Below are positions 51,714-57,933 of a stretch of DNA of 64,000 nt, piece after piece. Made by a program: the position numbers and the translations under genes. The notes beneath the pieces were generated by a model that was not told where the DNA came from, searched no databases, and saw only the letters and a program-made list of their open reading frames with translations. Location: the sequence record PQ349265.1, one strand, 5' to 3'. The DNA is from Escherichia phage CJY920. Position 1 is the stretch's first letter. Every line of letters starts with the position of its first letter.

Positions 51714-53264
51714 ATGATTAAGAATGAAATTAAAATTCTGAGCGATATTGAACATATCAAAAAGCGTAGCGGCATGTATATTGGCTCTTCTGCTAATGAA
51801 ATGCATGAGCGCTTTCTGTTTGGTAAATGGGAAAGTGTTCAGTATGTACCTGGTCTTGTTAAGCTTATTGATGAAATTATCGATAACTCAGTAGATGAAG
51901 GTATTCGTACTAAGTTTAAATTCGCAAATAAAATTAGTGTTACTATTAAAAACAATCAAGTAACAGTTGAAGATAACGGTCGCGGTATTCCACAGGCGAT
52001 GGTTAAAACACCTACTGGTGAAGAAATTCCTGGTCCTGTTGCTGCATGGACTATTCCAAAAGCAGGTGGTAACTTTGGTGATGATAAAGAACGCGTCACT
52101 GGCGGTATGAATGGTGTTGGTTCTAGTTTGACAAACATTTTTTCTGTGATGTTTGTCGGTGAAACTGGTGATGGTCAAAATAATATTGTAGTTCGTTGTT
52201 CAAATGGCATGGAAAATAAATCATGGGAAACTATTCCAGGAAAATGGAAAGGAACTCGTGTTACTTTCATTCCTGATTTTATGTCATTTGAAACTAATGA
52301 GCTGTCCCAAGTTTATCTTGACATTACACTAGATCGTCTCCAGACACTTGCAGTAGTTTATCCTGATATTCAATTTACCTTTAATGGTAAAAAGGTTCAG
52401 GGCAATTTTAAGAAATATGCACGCCAATATGATGAGCATGCTATCGTTCAAGAACAAGAAAATTGCTCTATTGCGGTTGGTCGTTCACCGGATGGTTTTC
52501 GTCAATTAACTTATGTGAATAACATTCACACTAAGAATGGTGGCCATCACATTGACTGTGTTATGGATGATATTTGTGAAGACCTTATTCCACAAATCAA
52601 ACGTAAGTTCAAAATTGATGTGACTAAAGCACGCGTTAAAGAATGTTTGACTATCGTTATGTTTGTCCGTGATATGAAAAACATGCGATTTGATTCTCAA
52701 ACTAAAGAGCGTTTGACTTCTCCATTTGGTGAAATCCGTAGTCATATTCAACTTGATGCTAAAAAGATTTCACGTGCTATTCTAAATAATGAAGCAATTC
52801 TAATGCCGATTATTGAAGCTGCTTTGGCTCGTAAATTGGCGGCAGAAAAAGCAGCAGAAACTAAAGCAGCTAAAAAGGCTTCTAAAGCTAAGGTTCATAA
52901 ACATATTAAAGCGAATCTTTGTGGTAAAGATGCTGATACTACTCTTTTCTTGACTGAGGGTGATTCGGCTATCGGATATCTTATTGATGTTCGTGATAAA
53001 GAACTTCACGGTGGTTATCCATTACGTGGTAAAGTTCTCAACAGTTGGGGTATGTCATATGCTGACATACTTAAAAACAAAGAACTGTTTGATATTTGCG
53101 CAATCACTGGATTAGTTCTCGGTGAAAAGGCGTTTGAAGAAAAAGAAGATGGCGAGTGGTTTACTTTCGAACTAAATGGCGATACAATTATCGTAAATGA
53201 AAATGATGAAGTACAGATTAATGGTAAATGGATAACAGTAGGTGAATTACGAAAAAATCTATAA
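51714..53264 (+). CDS. 39: topoisomerase II large subunit gp39 (GyrB-like ATPase)
   Basis: 516 aa; GHKL ATPase motifs (IDNSVDE, GRGIP); GAGG SD. Confidence 0.9.
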   Translation: MIKNEIKILSDIEHIKKRSGMYIGSSANEMHERFLFGKWESVQYVPGLVKLIDEIIDNSVDEGIRTKFKFANKISVTIKNNQVTVEDNGRGIPQAMVKTPTGEEIPGPVAAWTIPKAGGNFGDDKERVTGGMNGVGSSLTNIFSVMFVGETGDGQNNIVVRCSNGMENKSWETIPGKWKGTRVTFIPDFMSFETNELSQVYLDITLDRLQTLAVVYPDIQFTFNGKKVQGNFKKYARQYDEHAIVQEQENCSIAVGRSPDGFRQLTYVNNIHTKNGGHHIDCVMDDICEDLIPQIKRKFKIDVTKARVKECLTIVMFVRDMKNMRFDSQTKERLTSPFGEIRSHIQLDAKKISRAILNNEAILMPIIEAALARKLAAEKAAETKAAKKASKAKVHKHIKANLCGKDADTTLFLTEGDSAIGYLIDVRDKELHGGYPLRGKVLNSWGMSYADILKNKELFDICAITGLVLGEKAFEEKEDGEWFTFELNGDTIIVNENDEVQINGKWITVGELRKNL

Positions 53265-54060
53265 TGACTTAATAGTGCGGGGTAAAACCCGCGTTTCTAA
53301 ATTTAAGGGTGAAATTCATCATATCCTTCCAAGATCAATGGGAGGTTCTGATGATAAAGAAAATTTGGTGAAACTGACTTTTCGTGAACATTTTTTAGCA
53401 CATTTTCTACTATATAAAATTCATCGTAATCGTGAAATGGCATATGCGATGAATAGAATGTTAAACACTGAAAAATATTTACGTTCTAGTAAATTATATG
53501 AAATTGCTAGAATTTACCATCAAAGAGCAGTATCTGAATGGTCAAAAAACTTTATGAAAGATAAAGTTTTAATGAGAAGTATTAAATCGGGTAAATGCGC
53601 CTTATTAATTAAAGGATCATTTAACCCAAAGGAATGGTGCGGTGTTAATAAAGGTGTTAAGCTTCCTGGAATTAAAGGCATGACATGCTTTAAAAATGAA
53701 AAAGGCGAAGTTTTTCGTCTTCATGTTAATGATCCACGCATTAAAGCTGAAAAATTAGTTGGTATTGGAAATACTGTTGCTGCTACTGCAAAAGCAGCTG
53801 AACTTGAAAAAGCGAAACCATGGTATAATAAATCAGCGACAAATCCAGAGGCTGTAAAATTAATACCAAATTTATATGAATGGTACGTCACGAAATATGA
53901 CCCCGATCATTATAAACGAACGGGAGTTGCTAAATGGAAATCAGTTAATAATATAACTGTGAATTCAAAATTATTCGGCCGAGCATTTAATGAATTTAAA
54001 CGCGGTTGGATTCCTGATGAAAAGTTCTATGAGGTGTATAATGAAATTTGTAAAAATTGA
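53242..54060 (+). CDS. mobA: Mob-type HNH homing endonuclease (MobA-like, between 39 and 60)
   Basis: MNYEKIYNDLI..., HHILPRSMGG...NLVKLTFREHFLAH; GTG start inside last 23 nt of gene 39. Confidence 0.75.
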   Translation: MNYEKIYNDLIVRGKTRVSKFKGEIHHILPRSMGGSDDKENLVKLTFREHFLAHFLLYKIHRNREMAYAMNRMLNTEKYLRSSKLYEIARIYHQRAVSEWSKNFMKDKVLMRSIKSGKCALLIKGSFNPKEWCGVNKGVKLPGIKGMTCFKNEKGEVFRLHVNDPRIKAEKLVGIGNTVAATAKAAELEKAKPWYNKSATNPEAVKLIPNLYEWYVTKYDPDHYKRTGVAKWKSVNNITVNSKLFGRAFNEFKRGWIPDEKFYEVYNEICKN

Positions 54061-54573
54061 TTCTTCTAGCGTTGATATGAAAAAATATAAATTGCAGAAC
54101 AATGTTCGTCGTTCTATTAAATCCTCTTCAATGAACTATGCGAATGTCGCTATTATGACAGACGCAGATCACGATGGATAGCCTTCGGGCTATCTATAGA
54201 AATACCTCATAATTAAGAGATTATTGGATTAGGTTCTATTTATCCTTCTCTGCTTGGATTTTTTAGTAATTGGCCAGAACTGTTTGAGCAAGGACGAATT
54301 CGCTTTGTCAAAACTCCTGTAATCATCGCTCAGGTTGGTAAAAAACAAGAATGGTTTTATACAGTCGCTGAATATGAGAGTGCTAAAGATGCTCTACCTA
54401 AACATAGTATTCGATACATCAAGGGATTGGGCTCACTTCAGCGGGATGAATATAAAGAAATGATTCAAAACCCTGTGTACGACGTAGTTAAACTTCCTGA
54501 AAATTGGAAAGAACTATTTGAAATGCTCATGGGTAACGACCCTGAACTCCGTAAAGATTGGATGCTAGGATAA
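54041..54573 (+). CDS. 60: topoisomerase II small subunit gp60, join(54041..54178,54229..54573) via 50-nt translational bypass
   Basis: MKFVKIDSS...AIMTDADHDG to take-off GGA then UAG; landing GGA 54226-54228; resumes LGSIYPSLLGFFSNWPELFEQGRIRFVK...; 46+114=160 aa. Confidence 0.85.
54179..54228 (+). other. gene 60 coding gap (ribosomal hop) with take-off stem-loop
   Basis: UAG stop inside UUCG hairpin (gga-tag-cc-ttcg-gg-cta-tc); matching GGA codons 50 nt apart. Confidence 0.8.
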
Positions 54574-55370
54574 TGAATTATCGTAAAATTTATGATAAAC
54601 TTATCGCTGCGGCTAAAAACCGCAGCACTATTCCTAATTATACTGAAACTCACCATATTTTGCCTAAATCTATGGGCGGGAGTAATGCTAAATCAAATCT
54701 AGTTAAAATGACCCCTAGAGAGCATTTTATCGCCCATTTATTGCTTTATAAAATTCATAAGAACCGTTCTATGCTTATGGCTATTAGAGCTTTTTACATG
54801 GGAGCTAGAAATTCTAGAGATTATGATTGGCTTAAACAAGAATTCTCTAAAGAGCACTCTAGATTTATGAAAGAATGGATTGCTAAAAATGGCAACCCAT
54901 TTAAAGGTAAAAAACATACTAAAGCAACAAGAGAATTAATGTCACATATTGCTTCACAACGTATAGGCGAATTAAATCCATTTTATGGTAAAACTCATAC
55001 GCAAGAAGCAATAGATAAAATAATACAGGCTAACAAGTTATCTTGGGAGAATGGGCGAAAAGCACCTGTAAAAACAAAAGAACACCAGGATAAAATAACT
55101 AAATCAAGAATGGAAACATTTAAAACAAAAGGATTTAAACCATACACTCCTAGGTCAGAAGAAACTAAAGCTAAGACTAGAGAGTTGTATAAATCTAAAT
55201 ATGAAAGAAGGCCTATAAGAATCACAAGTGTAAAAACAGGCGAAACTATTGATTTTAACTATCTTTATGAATTAAGGGAGTATTTAGATATAGGGTCTTC
55301 TAATATATTGAAAGCATTAAATAATCCTAACAGAACCTGCAAAGGTTATAAAATGTGTTGGATGTCCTAA
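54573..55370 (+). CDS. Mob-type HNH homing endonuclease
   Basis: MNYRKIYDKLI..., THHILPKSMGG...NLVKMTPREHFIAH; NUMOD3-like NPFYGKTHT; ATG overlaps gene 60 TAA. Confidence 0.75.
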   Translation: MNYRKIYDKLIAAAKNRSTIPNYTETHHILPKSMGGSNAKSNLVKMTPREHFIAHLLLYKIHKNRSMLMAIRAFYMGARNSRDYDWLKQEFSKEHSRFMKEWIAKNGNPFKGKKHTKATRELMSHIASQRIGELNPFYGKTHTQEAIDKIIQANKLSWENGRKAPVKTKEHQDKITKSRMETFKTKGFKPYTPRSEETKAKTRELYKSKYERRPIRITSVKTGETIDFNYLYELREYLDIGSSNILKALNNPNRTCKGYKMCWMS

Positions 55371-55397
55371 GCTCCTTCGGGAGCTTCATTTTAATTT
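55369..55397 (+). terminator. intrinsic terminator (UUCG hairpin plus T-rich tail)
   Basis: aagctcc-ttcg-ggagctt then tcattttaatttt. Confidence 0.55.
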
Positions 55398-55412
55398 TAA
55401 TAAGGCTTAATT

Positions 55413-55487
55413 ATGAAAGTTATGTTTATCCCATCTCGTGCAGTCCCATTTAATCCTGACCTTCGCAAAGAATGGATGAGCCAATAG
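55413..55487 (+). pseudogene. remnant of an alternative gene 60 3' end
   Basis: 24-codon ORF ending ...PFNPDLRKEWMSQ*, resembling the actual gene 60 end ...GNDPELRKDWMLG*. Confidence 0.45.
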
Positions 55488-55516
55488 TTTACTTTACCAC
55501 AAGGATGTGGTATAAT
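55488..55516 (+). promoter_or_regulatory. early sigma70-type promoter
   Basis: agtttactttaccacaaggatgtggtataat; near-identical to 8132-8161. Confidence 0.55.
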
Positions 55517-55541
55517 TAATTGGGCAAATGAGGATATTGAA

Positions 55542-55745
55542 ATGAAATCATATAAAGTAAATTTAGAACTTTTTGATAAAGCAGTTCATCGAGAATATAG
55601 AATCATTCAACGCTTTTTCGATATGGGAGAAGCCGAAGAATTTAAAAACCGCTTTAAAGATATTAGAGATAAAATTCAATCCGACACCGCAACTAAAGAC
55701 GAACTACTAGAAGTTGCTGAAGTTATTAAGCGTAATATGAATTAA
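55542..55745 (+). CDS. hypothetical protein (67 aa; rIIA.1 position)
   Basis: track ORF upstream of rIIA. Confidence 0.5.
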
Positions 55746-55755
55746 TGAGGAAATT

Positions 55756-57933
55756 ATGATTATCACCACTGAAAAAGAAACAATTCTTGGTAATGGTTCT
55801 AAATCAAAAGCATTTAGCATCACAGCATCTCCTAAAGTATTTAAAATTCTGTCATCTGATTTGTATACAAACAAGATTCGCGCAGTAGTTCGTGAATTGA
55901 TTACCAACATGATTGATGCCCATGCTCTTAATGGAAATCCTGAAAAATTTATCATTCAAGTTCCTGGACGTTTAGATCCACGATTTGTTTGCCGAGATTT
56001 TGGTCCGGGTATGAGCGATTTTGATATTCAAGGTGATGATAATTCTCCTGGGTTGTATAATTCATACTTTAGTTCATCTAAGGCTGAATCTAACGATTTC
56101 ATTGGTGGATTTGGTTTAGGTTCTAAATCTCCGTTTAGTTATACTGATACATTTAGTATTACTTCATATCATAAAGGCGAAATTCGTGGTTATGTAGCTT
56201 ACATGGATGGTGATGGTCCACAGATTAAACCTACATTCGTAAAAGAAATGGGTCCAAATGATAAAACTGGTATTGAAATCGTAGTTCCAGTTGAAGAAAA
56301 AGATTTTAGAAACTTTGCTTATGAAGTTTCTTATATCATGCGACCATTCAAAGATTTGGCTATCATTAATGGTCTTGACCGTGAAATTGATTATTTTCCG
56401 GATTTTGATGACTACTACGGCGTAAATCCAGAAAGATACTGGCCAGATCGTGGTGGATTGTATGCTATCTATGGTGGTATTGTTTATCCTATTGATGGTG
56501 TTATTAGAGACCGTAACTGGTTAAGCATTCGCAATGAAGTGAATTACATTAAGTTTCCAATGGGTTCACTTGATATTGCTCCATCACGTGAGGCTCTTTC
56601 ACTAGATGATCGTACTCGTAAAAATATTATTGAGCGTGTTAAAGAGCTTAGTGAGAAAGCATTTAATGAAGATGTAAAACGATTTAAAGAATCTACATCT
56701 CCTCGTCATACATACCGTGAATTGATGAAGATGGGATATTCTGCTCGAGATTATATGATTAGTAATTCGGTCAAATTCACGACTAAAAATCTGTCATATA
56801 AGAAGATGCAAAGCATGTTTGAACCTGACAGTAAGTTATGCAATGCAGGGGTTGTGTATGAAGTAAATCTTGACCCTCGACTGAAGCGCATTAAGCAAAG
56901 CCATGAAACTTCAGCCGTTGCGTCAAGCTATCGTCTGTTTGGTATTAATACGACAAAAATTAATATTGTTATTGATAATACTAAAAATCGTGTTAATATT
57001 GTCCGTGGATTAGCACGTGCATTAGATGATAGCGAATTTAATAACACCTTAAATATTCATCACAATGAGCGTCTTCTGTTTATTAATCCGGAAGTAGAAT
57101 CACAGATTGATTTACTCCCTGATATTATGGCAATGTTTGAAAGTGATGAAGTTAACATTCATTATTTGTCAGAAATTGAAGCTTTAGTTAAAAGTTATAT
57201 TCCAAAGGCAGTAAAAAGTACAGCTCCTCGTCCTAAAACTGCCACTGCATTTAAGTTTGAAATTAAAGACGGGCGTTGGGAAAAAGAGGAATTGTTTACG
57301 CTCACATCAGAAGCAGATGAAATTACTGGTTATGTAGCATACATGCATCGTTCTGATATTTTCTCTATAGATGGTACTACATCGCTTTGTCATCCATCTA
57401 CGAATATTTTGATTCGTATGGCTAATCTTATTGGCATTAATGAATTTTATGTTATTCGTCCGCTTTTGCAGAAAAAGGTAAAAGAACTTGGTCAGTGCCA
57501 ATGTATTTTTGAAACTTTGCGTGATTTATATGTAGATGCTTTTGATGATGTAGATTATGATAAGTATGTAGGTTATTCAAGTTCAGCTAAACGATATATT
57601 GATAAAATTATCAAGTATCCTGAGTTAGATTTTATGATGAAGTACTTCAGTGTAGATGAAGTTTCTGAAGAATATACACGACTCGCTAATATGGTTAGTT
57701 CATTACAGGGTGTATATTTCAACGGTGGAAAAGATACCATCGGTCATGACATCTGGACAGTAACTAATCTTTTTGATGTATTATCAAATAATGCTTCAAA
57801 AAACAGTGATAAAATGGTTGCTGAGTTTACCAAGAAATTCCGTATTGTTTCCGACTTCATCGGTTATCGCAATTCTTTAAGTGATGATGAAGTTTCCCAA
57901 ATCGCTAAAACTATGAAGGCCCTTGCGGCCTAA
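55756..57933 (+). CDS. rIIA: rIIA protein
   Basis: 725 aa [30 protein letters not shown]...; matches remembered T4 rIIA. Confidence 0.9.

Follow-up and report, generated by a model that had tools for sequence, protein, structure and literature searches.

In the 64,000-nucleotide (nt) stretch of Escherichia phage CJY920 analysed here (sequence record PQ349265.1; hereafter the window), gene 60, the downstream part of the split topoisomerase II large-subunit gene, lies between two genes for HNH homing endonucleases of the Mob type, and its coding sequence is a mosaic. The upstream endonuclease gene is of the mobA type. The downstream one, for which we use the working name HNH#2, is an open reading frame (ORF) at window positions 54573-55370. 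We consider it quite probable that HNH#2 is a Mob-type homing endonuclease whose cassette settled first in a Mosigvirus and then in a Tequatrovirus. Its passage would have given gene 60 a foreign 3' end and left the native end stranded downstream as part of a nested scar. The features on which this explanation is built are as follows.

51714..53264, + strand: gene 39, N-terminal part of the topoisomerase II large subunit; ORF, collinear with T4 at 92-100% identity per 100 nt
53242..54060, + strand: gene for a mobA-type HNH homing endonuclease of 272 residues, GTG start
54041..54178, + strand: gene 60 part 1, reaching to the take-off GGA, an N-terminal extension that comes from the mobA element (from sequence and T4 annotation)
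54179..54228, + strand: translational bypass gap of 50 nt, from TAG to the landing GGA, 98-100% identical to T4
54229..54402, + strand: the sole native Tequatrovirus stretch of gene 60, all informative sites T4/RB32/T6-type
54403..54564, + strand: imported, co-converted 3' coding tract of gene 60, endonuclease-linked allele, 157/157 identical to Mosigvirus and Tequatrovirus carriers
54558..54564, + strand: left copy of the direct repeat TTGGATG (sequence, empty-site comparison)
54565..55364, + strand: HNH#2 cassette, 800 nt, starting with CTA GGA TAA; empty site in NHEP36 and JS09
54573..55370, + strand: HNH#2 ORF, 265 residues, N-terminal HNH domain and two NUMOD3 stretches
55358..55364, + strand: right copy of TTGGATG (sequence, empty-site comparison)
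55359..55370, + strand: older remnant consisting of TGG ATG TCC TAA, the four final codons of a topoisomerase gene of Mosigvirus, as at the ends in JS09 and NHEP36
55369..55386, + strand: Mosigvirus topoisomerase terminator hairpin, a terminator-like site found also in JS09
55413..55461, + strand: truncated start of Mosigvirus ORF003c, 49 nt, 100% identical to JS09 and phi25-307
55413..55487, + strand: 24-codon ORF, a chimera of the ORF003c start and a gene 60 end
55456..55461, + strand: CTGACC microhomology at the Mosigvirus/Tequatrovirus junction
55462..55487, + strand: remnant of the native T4-type gene 60 end (..LRKEWMSQ-stop), within a region 92/96 identical to T4 and T6 (55450-55545)
55488..55541, + strand: intergenic region of T4 type, containing TTTACT-17-TATAAT, a sigma-70-like promoter match
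55542-55745, + strand: rIIA.1

The window is ~95% identical to known Tequatroviruses across 20 kb and so represents a new strain, distinct from T4. Its gene order, 39-mobA-60-rIIA.1-rIIA-rIIB, is that of the T4-type cluster on the + strand. Gene 39 as read here includes a C-terminal extension contributed by the mobA element. The GTG start of the mobA-type gene overlaps gene 39 by 23 nt, the same layout as in T4, whose mobA has a GUG start and a 23-bp overlap (PMC2988022). The gene is 97-100% identical to that of T4, its product falls into phrog_655 (E = 2.5e-57), and its 3' end overlaps by 20 nt with gene 60 part 1, the extension that belongs to the structure of the mobA element (Manning & Atkins, bioRxiv 2022.08.31.505936). 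Gene 60 reads join(54041..54178, 54229..54573). The bypass gap opens with the TAG at 54179, and position 54573 is both the last base of the gene 60 stop codon TAA (54571-54573) and the first of the HNH#2 ATG. Positions 53130-54228 have the make-up of a mobA/bypass element: a split gene, element-supplied extensions, a 50-nt gap and GGA take-off and landing codons, at 97-100% identity to T4. The original prediction, made from the letters of the window, had described a gene 60 bracketed by two Mob-type HNH genes, the first (53242-54060) beginning within the end of gene 39 and the second (54573-55370) on the gene 60 stop codon; all of its coordinates hold. The mobA/bypass cassette that it named is present as well, with HNH#2 as a separate element that has its own distribution. 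The C-terminus of gene 39 (..VGELRKNL-stop, 53240-53264) resembles the topoisomerase end motif ..ELRKDWM..; this likeness is probably a coincidence, the stretch being the mobA start region in another frame.

The foreign origin of the gene 60 3' end was mapped at informative sites, defined as positions where T6/RB32 differ from JS09/phi25-307. The window is of Tequatrovirus type up to 54402 and of the endonuclease-linked type from 54408, placing the left crossover at 54402-54408. From 54403-54408 to 54573 the sequence is identical to the endonuclease-linked allele of Mosigvirus and other carriers and 71-74% identical to T4, in agreement with the prediction of an imported functional end. This Mosigvirus-type tract measures 166-171 nt in the window and ~405-415 nt in the Tequatrovirus carriers BYEP01 (L005) and fPS-90 (L002), which have no mobA and whose left switch lies at topoisomerase nt 1403-1416. 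Gene 60 of the window is composed of 46 codons from the mobA element plus the gap, 58 native codons (54229-54402) and 56 imported codons plus the stop; by translation, its last 47 residues contain 11 differences from T4 gp60. Just 174 nt of the gene are native, and both ends of this classic recoding gene stem from mobile elements. The switch in BYEP01 and fPS-90 (~window 53115-53129) falls together with the 5' insertion point that has been published for mobA, nt 1399-1419 (Manning & Atkins, bioRxiv 2022.08.31.505936). This overlap may be due to chance or to a shared recombination hotspot.

Downstream of HNH#2, the original prediction had likened a 24-codon ORF (55413-55487) to the end of gene 60 and read it as the original end, left as the scar of a homing-endonuclease cassette. 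Aligned directly, 54541-54573 and 55455-55487 agree at 23/33 nt, the best non-self match to the gene 60-end 33-mer on both strands of the 64-kb window; the next reaches 20/33. A seed-based repeat finder (7-nt seed) did not report the pair, which the direct scan found, because the two segments share no exact 7-mer. Over 55450-55545 the window agrees with both T4 and T6 at 92/96 positions and with RB32 at 91/96. In these three HNH#2-free phages the topoisomerase gene ends ...GCTGACCTTCGTAAAGAATGGATGAGCCAGTAG, then TTTACTTTACCACAAGG..., and since the match continues into the downstream sequence, the remnant is the native Tequatrovirus gene end with its native downstream region still attached. The adjoining intergenic segment, 55488-55541, agrees with T4/RB32/T6 at all positions and has its promoter-like site at 55488-55516.

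The likeness to gene 60 holds for the last 9-11 codons of the 24-codon ORF; its first 49 nt are ORF003c. Window positions 55359-55461 are identical to RB69-like Mosigvirus (for example JS09) and are not Tequatrovirus DNA. In Mosigvirus they comprise the 12 nt that end the topoisomerase gene (TGGATGTCCTAA), the terminator hairpin (55369-55386, folding at -13.1 kcal/mol with z = -2.8) and the first 49 nt of ORF003c. The latter runs over 366 codons in JS09 and phi25-307, and in RB69 it encodes a proposed arabinosyl-hydroxymethylcytosine (arabinosyl-hmC) transferase (PMC6024577). At the junction, ORF003c (AATCCTGACC/GTGTAC) and T4 gene 60 (AATGCTGACC/TTCGTA) share the CTGACC. Because its pieces come from two genera, the 24-codon ORF is a chimera of ORF003c codons 1-16 and the last nine codons of a T4-type gene 60. 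The last four codons of HNH#2 (TGGATGTCCTAA) in turn are a second, older remnant, namely the end of a Mosigvirus topoisomerase gene. They now provide the C-terminus and stop of HNH#2, whose homologues end otherwise (...GFKWKY..). The homing-scar reading is supported and extended: the scar is nested and holds two remnants with intermediate-host DNA. Two other origins were rejected. For a simple deletion of ORF003c within one genome, there is no T4-type gene 60 end downstream of Mosigvirus ORF003c. As for local tandem duplication or slippage, the copies differ at 10/33 positions, each matching a different phage lineage.

The limits of the cassette were set by comparison with the empty site TGGATG/TCCTAA (the slash marks the insertion point). 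JS09 has a naive empty site, ...GAATGGATG/TCCTAA, and NHEP36 has an empty site inside the endonuclease-linked allele, ...GATTGGATG/TCCTAA. Carriers read ...GATTGGATG, followed by the insert CTAGGATAATG...TGTTGGATG and then TCCTAA, which corresponds to 800 nt flanked by TTGGATG. With empty sites in JS09, NHEP36, T4, T6 and RB32, the cassette is a presence/absence polymorphism among close relatives. The 'Mosigvirus utam' phages LF82-4, OLB35 and TH12 (L024, L025 and L026) read TGGATG-CTTGGTTAATTGATAG-ATGTCCTAA, with an 18-19-nt insert at the empty site (~1455-1480). This insert, CTTGGTTAATTGATAG(ATG), keeps the Leu-Gly-stop end of the topoisomerase, and it resembles a footprint left when a diverged copy of the HNH#2 cassette was deleted.

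How much of the replacement end the cassette itself supplies can be read from L013, a 169-kb NCBI contig (assembly GCA_041350275.1) that also carries HNH#2. It is T4-type up to TGGATG, so that only CTA GGA TAA (Leu-Gly-stop) is strictly cassette-borne, and the substitutions near the gene 60 end are not needed for keeping the element. The original prediction of a cassette that brought a replacement coding end was right about the import, with the refinement that the cassette's own share is confined to these codons. The whole ~145-nt divergent patch was rejected as obligatory cassette DNA on the same grounds, and because the patch occurs in NHEP36, which lacks the endonuclease. In addition, an AGGA two nt before the HNH#2 ATG arises from the replacement codons CTAGGATAA. 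Upstream of this ATG, the frame is open to a TTG at 54558 (MDARIMNY...), an alternative start, and the metagenomic locus L008 (3664-3680) has an ATG at the matching position (MDGAVNY...). The true start of HNH#2 may therefore lie ~15 nt inside the topoisomerase gene.

Presence and absence were counted in a set of 50,697 phage records, in which HNH#2 occurs in 27 of ~650 matching records. Most of these carriers are collinear with Mosigvirus phi25-307, in the order unsplit topoisomerase-HNH#2-hairpin-full ORF003c-rIIA.1 (among the Mosigvirus-like carriers, genus membership was confirmed for phi25-307 only); Tequatrovirus carriers have the truncated version of ORF003c. The topoisomerase gene is unsplit in all 27 records, and T4 and its relatives have mobA without HNH#2. 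These separate distributions indicate that HNH#2 is not part of the mobA/bypass element.

A protein identical to the HNH#2 of the window is encoded by phages of Mosigvirus as well as of Tequatrovirus. Across carriers in the two genera, the 800-nt cassette is identical at 795-799/800 positions (99.4-99.9%) and the 97-nt piece of Mosigvirus DNA carried along with it at 97/97. The corresponding values are 96.2-97.5% for rIIA.1+rIIA among Tequatrovirus carriers and just 62-88% for the topoisomerase gene between Mosigvirus and Tequatrovirus. A cassette that is more conserved than its flanks marks a recent transfer from Mosigvirus to Tequatrovirus. The right junction is common to all Tequatrovirus carriers and the left crossovers vary, a pattern that points to a single illegitimate entry followed by homologous spread with different left crossovers.

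The HNH#2 protein is 61% identical to the mobA-encoded protein over the first 71 residues only. It matches phrog_655, 'homing endonuclease' (E = 1.3e-55), the family that also holds the mobA protein of the window. Residues H27, H28, N42, H51 and H55 are invariant among 40 HNH#2 homologues. An AlphaFold2 model places a beta-beta-alpha unit at residues 25-62 (strands 25-28 and 43-46, helix 48-62) with a predicted local distance difference test score (pLDDT) of >93. Two stretches after the HNH domain match NUMOD3 (36.5 bits against a 20.4-bit cut-off, E = 4.6e-9), and the C-terminal half is unlike that of MobA, in keeping with a modular C-terminal DNA-binding region. The ORF is intact in all carriers. 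HNH#2 is thus best described as an uncharacterised new member of the Mob-type free-standing HNH endonucleases with presumed endonuclease activity.

The nearest homologues beyond the cluster at ~98% identity are P0002 (45% identity), P0003 (44%) and P0004 (41%). They come from divergent, metagenomic T4-like phages, and each of their genes directly follows the gene for the topoisomerase large subunit on its 3' side. The start of P0002 (in L008) overlaps the topoisomerase stop (GTGA), and its ORF leads straight into CTTCGTAAAGAGTGGATGAATCAATAG (LRKEWMNQ-stop). This sequence is an independent remnant: its position is precisely that of the gene end in CC31, a relative that lacks the endonuclease, and it starts at the same Leu codon as the window remnant. 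The start of P0004 (L027) likewise overlaps the stop (ATGA), with no remnant there, and the gene for P0003 (L011) is downstream of a terminator hairpin. As part of the explanation that we hold to be probable, the HNH#2 lineage has a specialised target, the very 3' end of the gene for the topoisomerase II large subunit in T4-like phages. At the other end of the gene, Mosigvirus AV114 (L016) and AV115 (L014) have a 227-residue NUMOD3 ORF (502-1185) overlapping the topoisomerase start, and L008 (1144-1851) has a 235-residue ORF with an Endonuclease_7 domain directly upstream of topoisomerase. Taken with mobA and HNH#2, these upstream ORFs make the topoisomerase gene a hotspot with three or more endonuclease insertions.

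Sequence comparison shows the following history. The cassette entered at TGGATG/TCCTAA, swapping the last codons for Leu-Gly-stop and leaving its own start codon overlapping the new stop. Its first host was an RB69-like Mosigvirus, in which it came to lie upstream of the terminator and the arabinosyltransferase gene. Entry into a Tequatrovirus followed, with >400 nt of Mosigvirus-type topoisomerase coding sequence on the left and, on the right, 97 nt of Mosigvirus DNA comprising the topoisomerase stop, the terminator hairpin and the first 49 nt of ORF003c. The right end was sealed non-homologously: it was joined at CTGACC to the resident gene, whose 9 final codons were thereby stranded. Later homologous exchange among Tequatroviruses, including a T4-type genome with mobA/bypass, gave rise to the window architecture.

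With regard to mechanism, the target of HNH#2 would be the topoisomerase gene of phages that lack the endonuclease. The enzyme would nick or cut it at GACC^TTCG or slightly upstream, ~18-24 nt ahead of the point of insertion. The break is placed there because two independent right junctions keep the DNA from (C)TTCG onward. Repair would copy the cassette from a co-infecting carrier, and the cross-genus step would represent a 'one-sided' homing event. Carriers would be immune, since the insertion splits a long recognition site into two halves. Such a mechanism has precedents: MobA and MobE nick their targets (PMC2988022), the bypass insert, which lies 20 nt beyond the nick on the downstream side, shields the MobA site (Manning & Atkins, bioRxiv 2022.08.31.505936), and T4 experiments have demonstrated one-sided homing via illegitimate repair at a microhomology (Parker et al. 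1999, as reported in PMC2988022).

Several observations weigh against an active homing endonuclease. Pfam HNH models score below their cut-offs (HNH_4, 16.7 bits against 22 bits). A sequence search of the PDB gave no significant match, only McrA at E = 0.38, and a Foldseek search with the AlphaFold2 model returned nothing at E <= 0.001, with I-HmuI at rank 43; the predicted fold evidence beyond the local HNH motif is weak. Mention of HNH#2 found in the literature amounts to a one-line annotation in the phiC120 genome paper. The putative cut position is deduced from just two independent junctions. The remnant retains the putative nick site with everything downstream and 9/10 nt upstream, so recognition would have to reach beyond ~-10 and +18, or carriers would cut themselves. 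Finally, general recombination without an endonuclease could yield the same mosaics.

The alternative that survives best builds on this last point. It takes the mosaic as real and HNH#2 as an inactive or passive passenger in a segment moved by ordinary homologous and illegitimate recombination; we judge it improbable. T4-like genomes are heavily mosaic; exchange in the window is patchy, and even the phages nearest to it are only ~95% identical. The patchy conversion in L013 can likewise be explained without a nuclease, and the activity of HNH#2 is deduced from its sequence. However, the conservation of the cassette across two genera contrasts with flanks that differ by 3-4% within a genus and far more between genera, and four diverged lineages have an endonuclease gene of this family at the same position. 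The catalytic residues are invariant, with the ORF intact in every carrier, and the site occurs empty, occupied and as a footprint, in keeping with a homing cycle. These observations argue for HNH#2 as the agent of its own transfer.

The 24-codon ORF could also be taken for a genuine small gene encoding a functional peptide of 24 residues, for it is open, has the ATG of ORF003c preceded by that gene's ribosome-binding region, and is present in 6/6 Tequatrovirus carriers examined. We regard this as very unlikely. The ORF fuses unrelated fragments, each 97-100% identical to a different genus, and it stands just downstream of a terminator hairpin. Intact copies were found in 7/50,697 phage records, representing five phages (BYEP01, F1, FN, fPS-90 and FL12), in 7/7 cases together with HNH#2, so it does not behave as an independent conserved gene. 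The remnant part differs from T4 at two positions, 55466 and 55484 (CGC for CGT, CAA for CAG). Both substitutions are synonymous in the old gene 60 frame, consistent with inherited polymorphism. BYEP01 has one of them in common with the window, and fPS-90 and L013 have neither, which suggests ongoing exchange with endonuclease-free phages downstream of the scar.

The combination of mobA and HNH#2 is absent from the 50,697 phage records, none of which covers at least 80% of window positions 53000-56000, and a pattern scan of IMG/VR for the bypass plus the HNH#2 start gave 0 contigs. An assembly chimera of two co-occurring phages would fit these absences and a switch at 54402-54408 inside a conserved gene, but it is hardly credible given that the independent contig L013 has mobA, bypass, HNH#2 and scar, collinear with the window and with the same left crossover (54402-54408), yet differs from it at 183/6,798 positions, and that one further similar contig has been reported. 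The double-endonuclease architecture is evidently real. Conversion in L013 is patchy, being endonuclease-linked at 54408-54468 and then T4/RB32-type at 54471-54558, adjoining the cassette. As a consequence of the T4/RB32-type patch, the functional end and the remnant of L013 share a perfect 23-nt repeat, CTGACCTTCGTAAAGAATGGATG, which, located around HNH#2, could permit precise loss of the element.

A more tentative idea, which we think somewhat doubtful, is that the two HNH nickase genes of the window and L013 act as one composite mobile unit. On mixed infection with a naive T-even phage, an unsplit topoisomerase gene would be nicked twice, by MobA close to nt ~1440 and by HNH#2 close to nt ~1791, and repair of the doubly damaged interval of ~350 nt would copy the whole 2.3-kb block consisting of the gene 39 C-terminal extension, mobA, bypass, gene 60, HNH#2 and scar. 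If so, gene 60 would be cargo between two endonucleases.

The locus offers a legible natural record of a free-standing homing endonuclease that appears to have jumped between phage genera. Preserved together are a nested pair of non-homologous junctions, part of a DNA-modification gene that was carried along, and alleles in the empty, occupied and footprint states. It also points to an uncharacterised endonuclease lineage whose conserved target would be the final ~30 nt of the gene for the topoisomerase large subunit, in phages with enzyme copies only 41-45% identical. The DNA moved recently from RB69-like (arabinosyl-hmC) into T4-like (glucosyl-hmC) phages, two groups reported not to recombine (PMC6024577). 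As part of the more tentative idea above, the same data would imply that homing endonucleases cross this barrier between arabinosyl-hmC Mosigvirus and glucosyl-hmC Tequatrovirus, groups that have been regarded as genetically isolated. The explanation makes testable predictions, namely a cut site at GACC^TTCG and recognition extending beyond ~-10 and +18.

To place HNH#2 among known systems, we compared it to four types of mobile element. It has most of the features of MobA and MobE: an N-terminal HNH domain (61% identical to that of MobA, and in phrog_655), a promoter-less cassette with a start codon overlapping the upstream ORF, insertion within or beside a conserved, essential gene of DNA metabolism, with co-converted flanks, and a proposed cut ~20 nt upstream of the sequence that the insertion disrupts, which parallels MobA and the bypass. 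In contrast to MobA, its C-terminal domain consists of two NUMOD3 stretches, its target would be the stop-codon region of the topoisomerase gene rather than nt ~1400-1440, and its distribution is independent of mobA. HNH#2 also has no recoding device and rewrites only the last two codons, and it is known here from sequence.

The mobA/bypass element of gene 39/60 (Bonocora et al. 2011, cited second-hand; Manning & Atkins) resides in the same host gene, likewise brings its own replacement coding copy (homR) and alters its site against self-cutting. HNH#2 differs in standing outside that element and mostly alongside unsplit topoisomerase genes; the mobA-element survey of Manning & Atkins (bioRxiv 2022.08.31.505936) makes no mention of it.

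One-sided homing in T4 similarly uses homology on one side and joins the other side at a short microhomology after limited degradation, bringing in donor DNA from beyond the element. In the case of HNH#2 the microhomologies are CTGACC and, at the older junction, TTGGATG. Whereas the T4 experiments used engineered substrates with the td intron and I-TevI, the event proposed here would be a natural one involving two genera and a free-standing HNH gene that was fixed and then spread.

Finally, fungal mitochondrial mobile ORFs (Allomyces macrogynus atp6, Paquin et al. 1994; Glomus atp6/atp9/cox2/nad3, PMC3630166) also combine a foreign C-terminal segment with an endonuclease ORF near the 3' end of an essential gene, leaving the native C-terminus unused downstream and closer to relatives than the functional copy (PMC3630166). 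The same relation is found here: the foreign segment is in phase with gene 60, with 71-74% identity to T4 for the functional end (54403-54573) and 92/96 for the remnant region. The fungal endonucleases are of the GIY-YIG or LAGLIDADG type and often fused in frame, with tens to hundreds of nt duplicated, whereas HNH#2 is a separate HNH ORF in a different frame that shares one base with the stop, and its remnant spans only 26-32 nt and is separated by intermediate-host DNA. The kind of system is therefore already known, a well-documented and ordinary type of mobile element; what is new is the detail, the cross-genus route and a gene 60 with two endonucleases.

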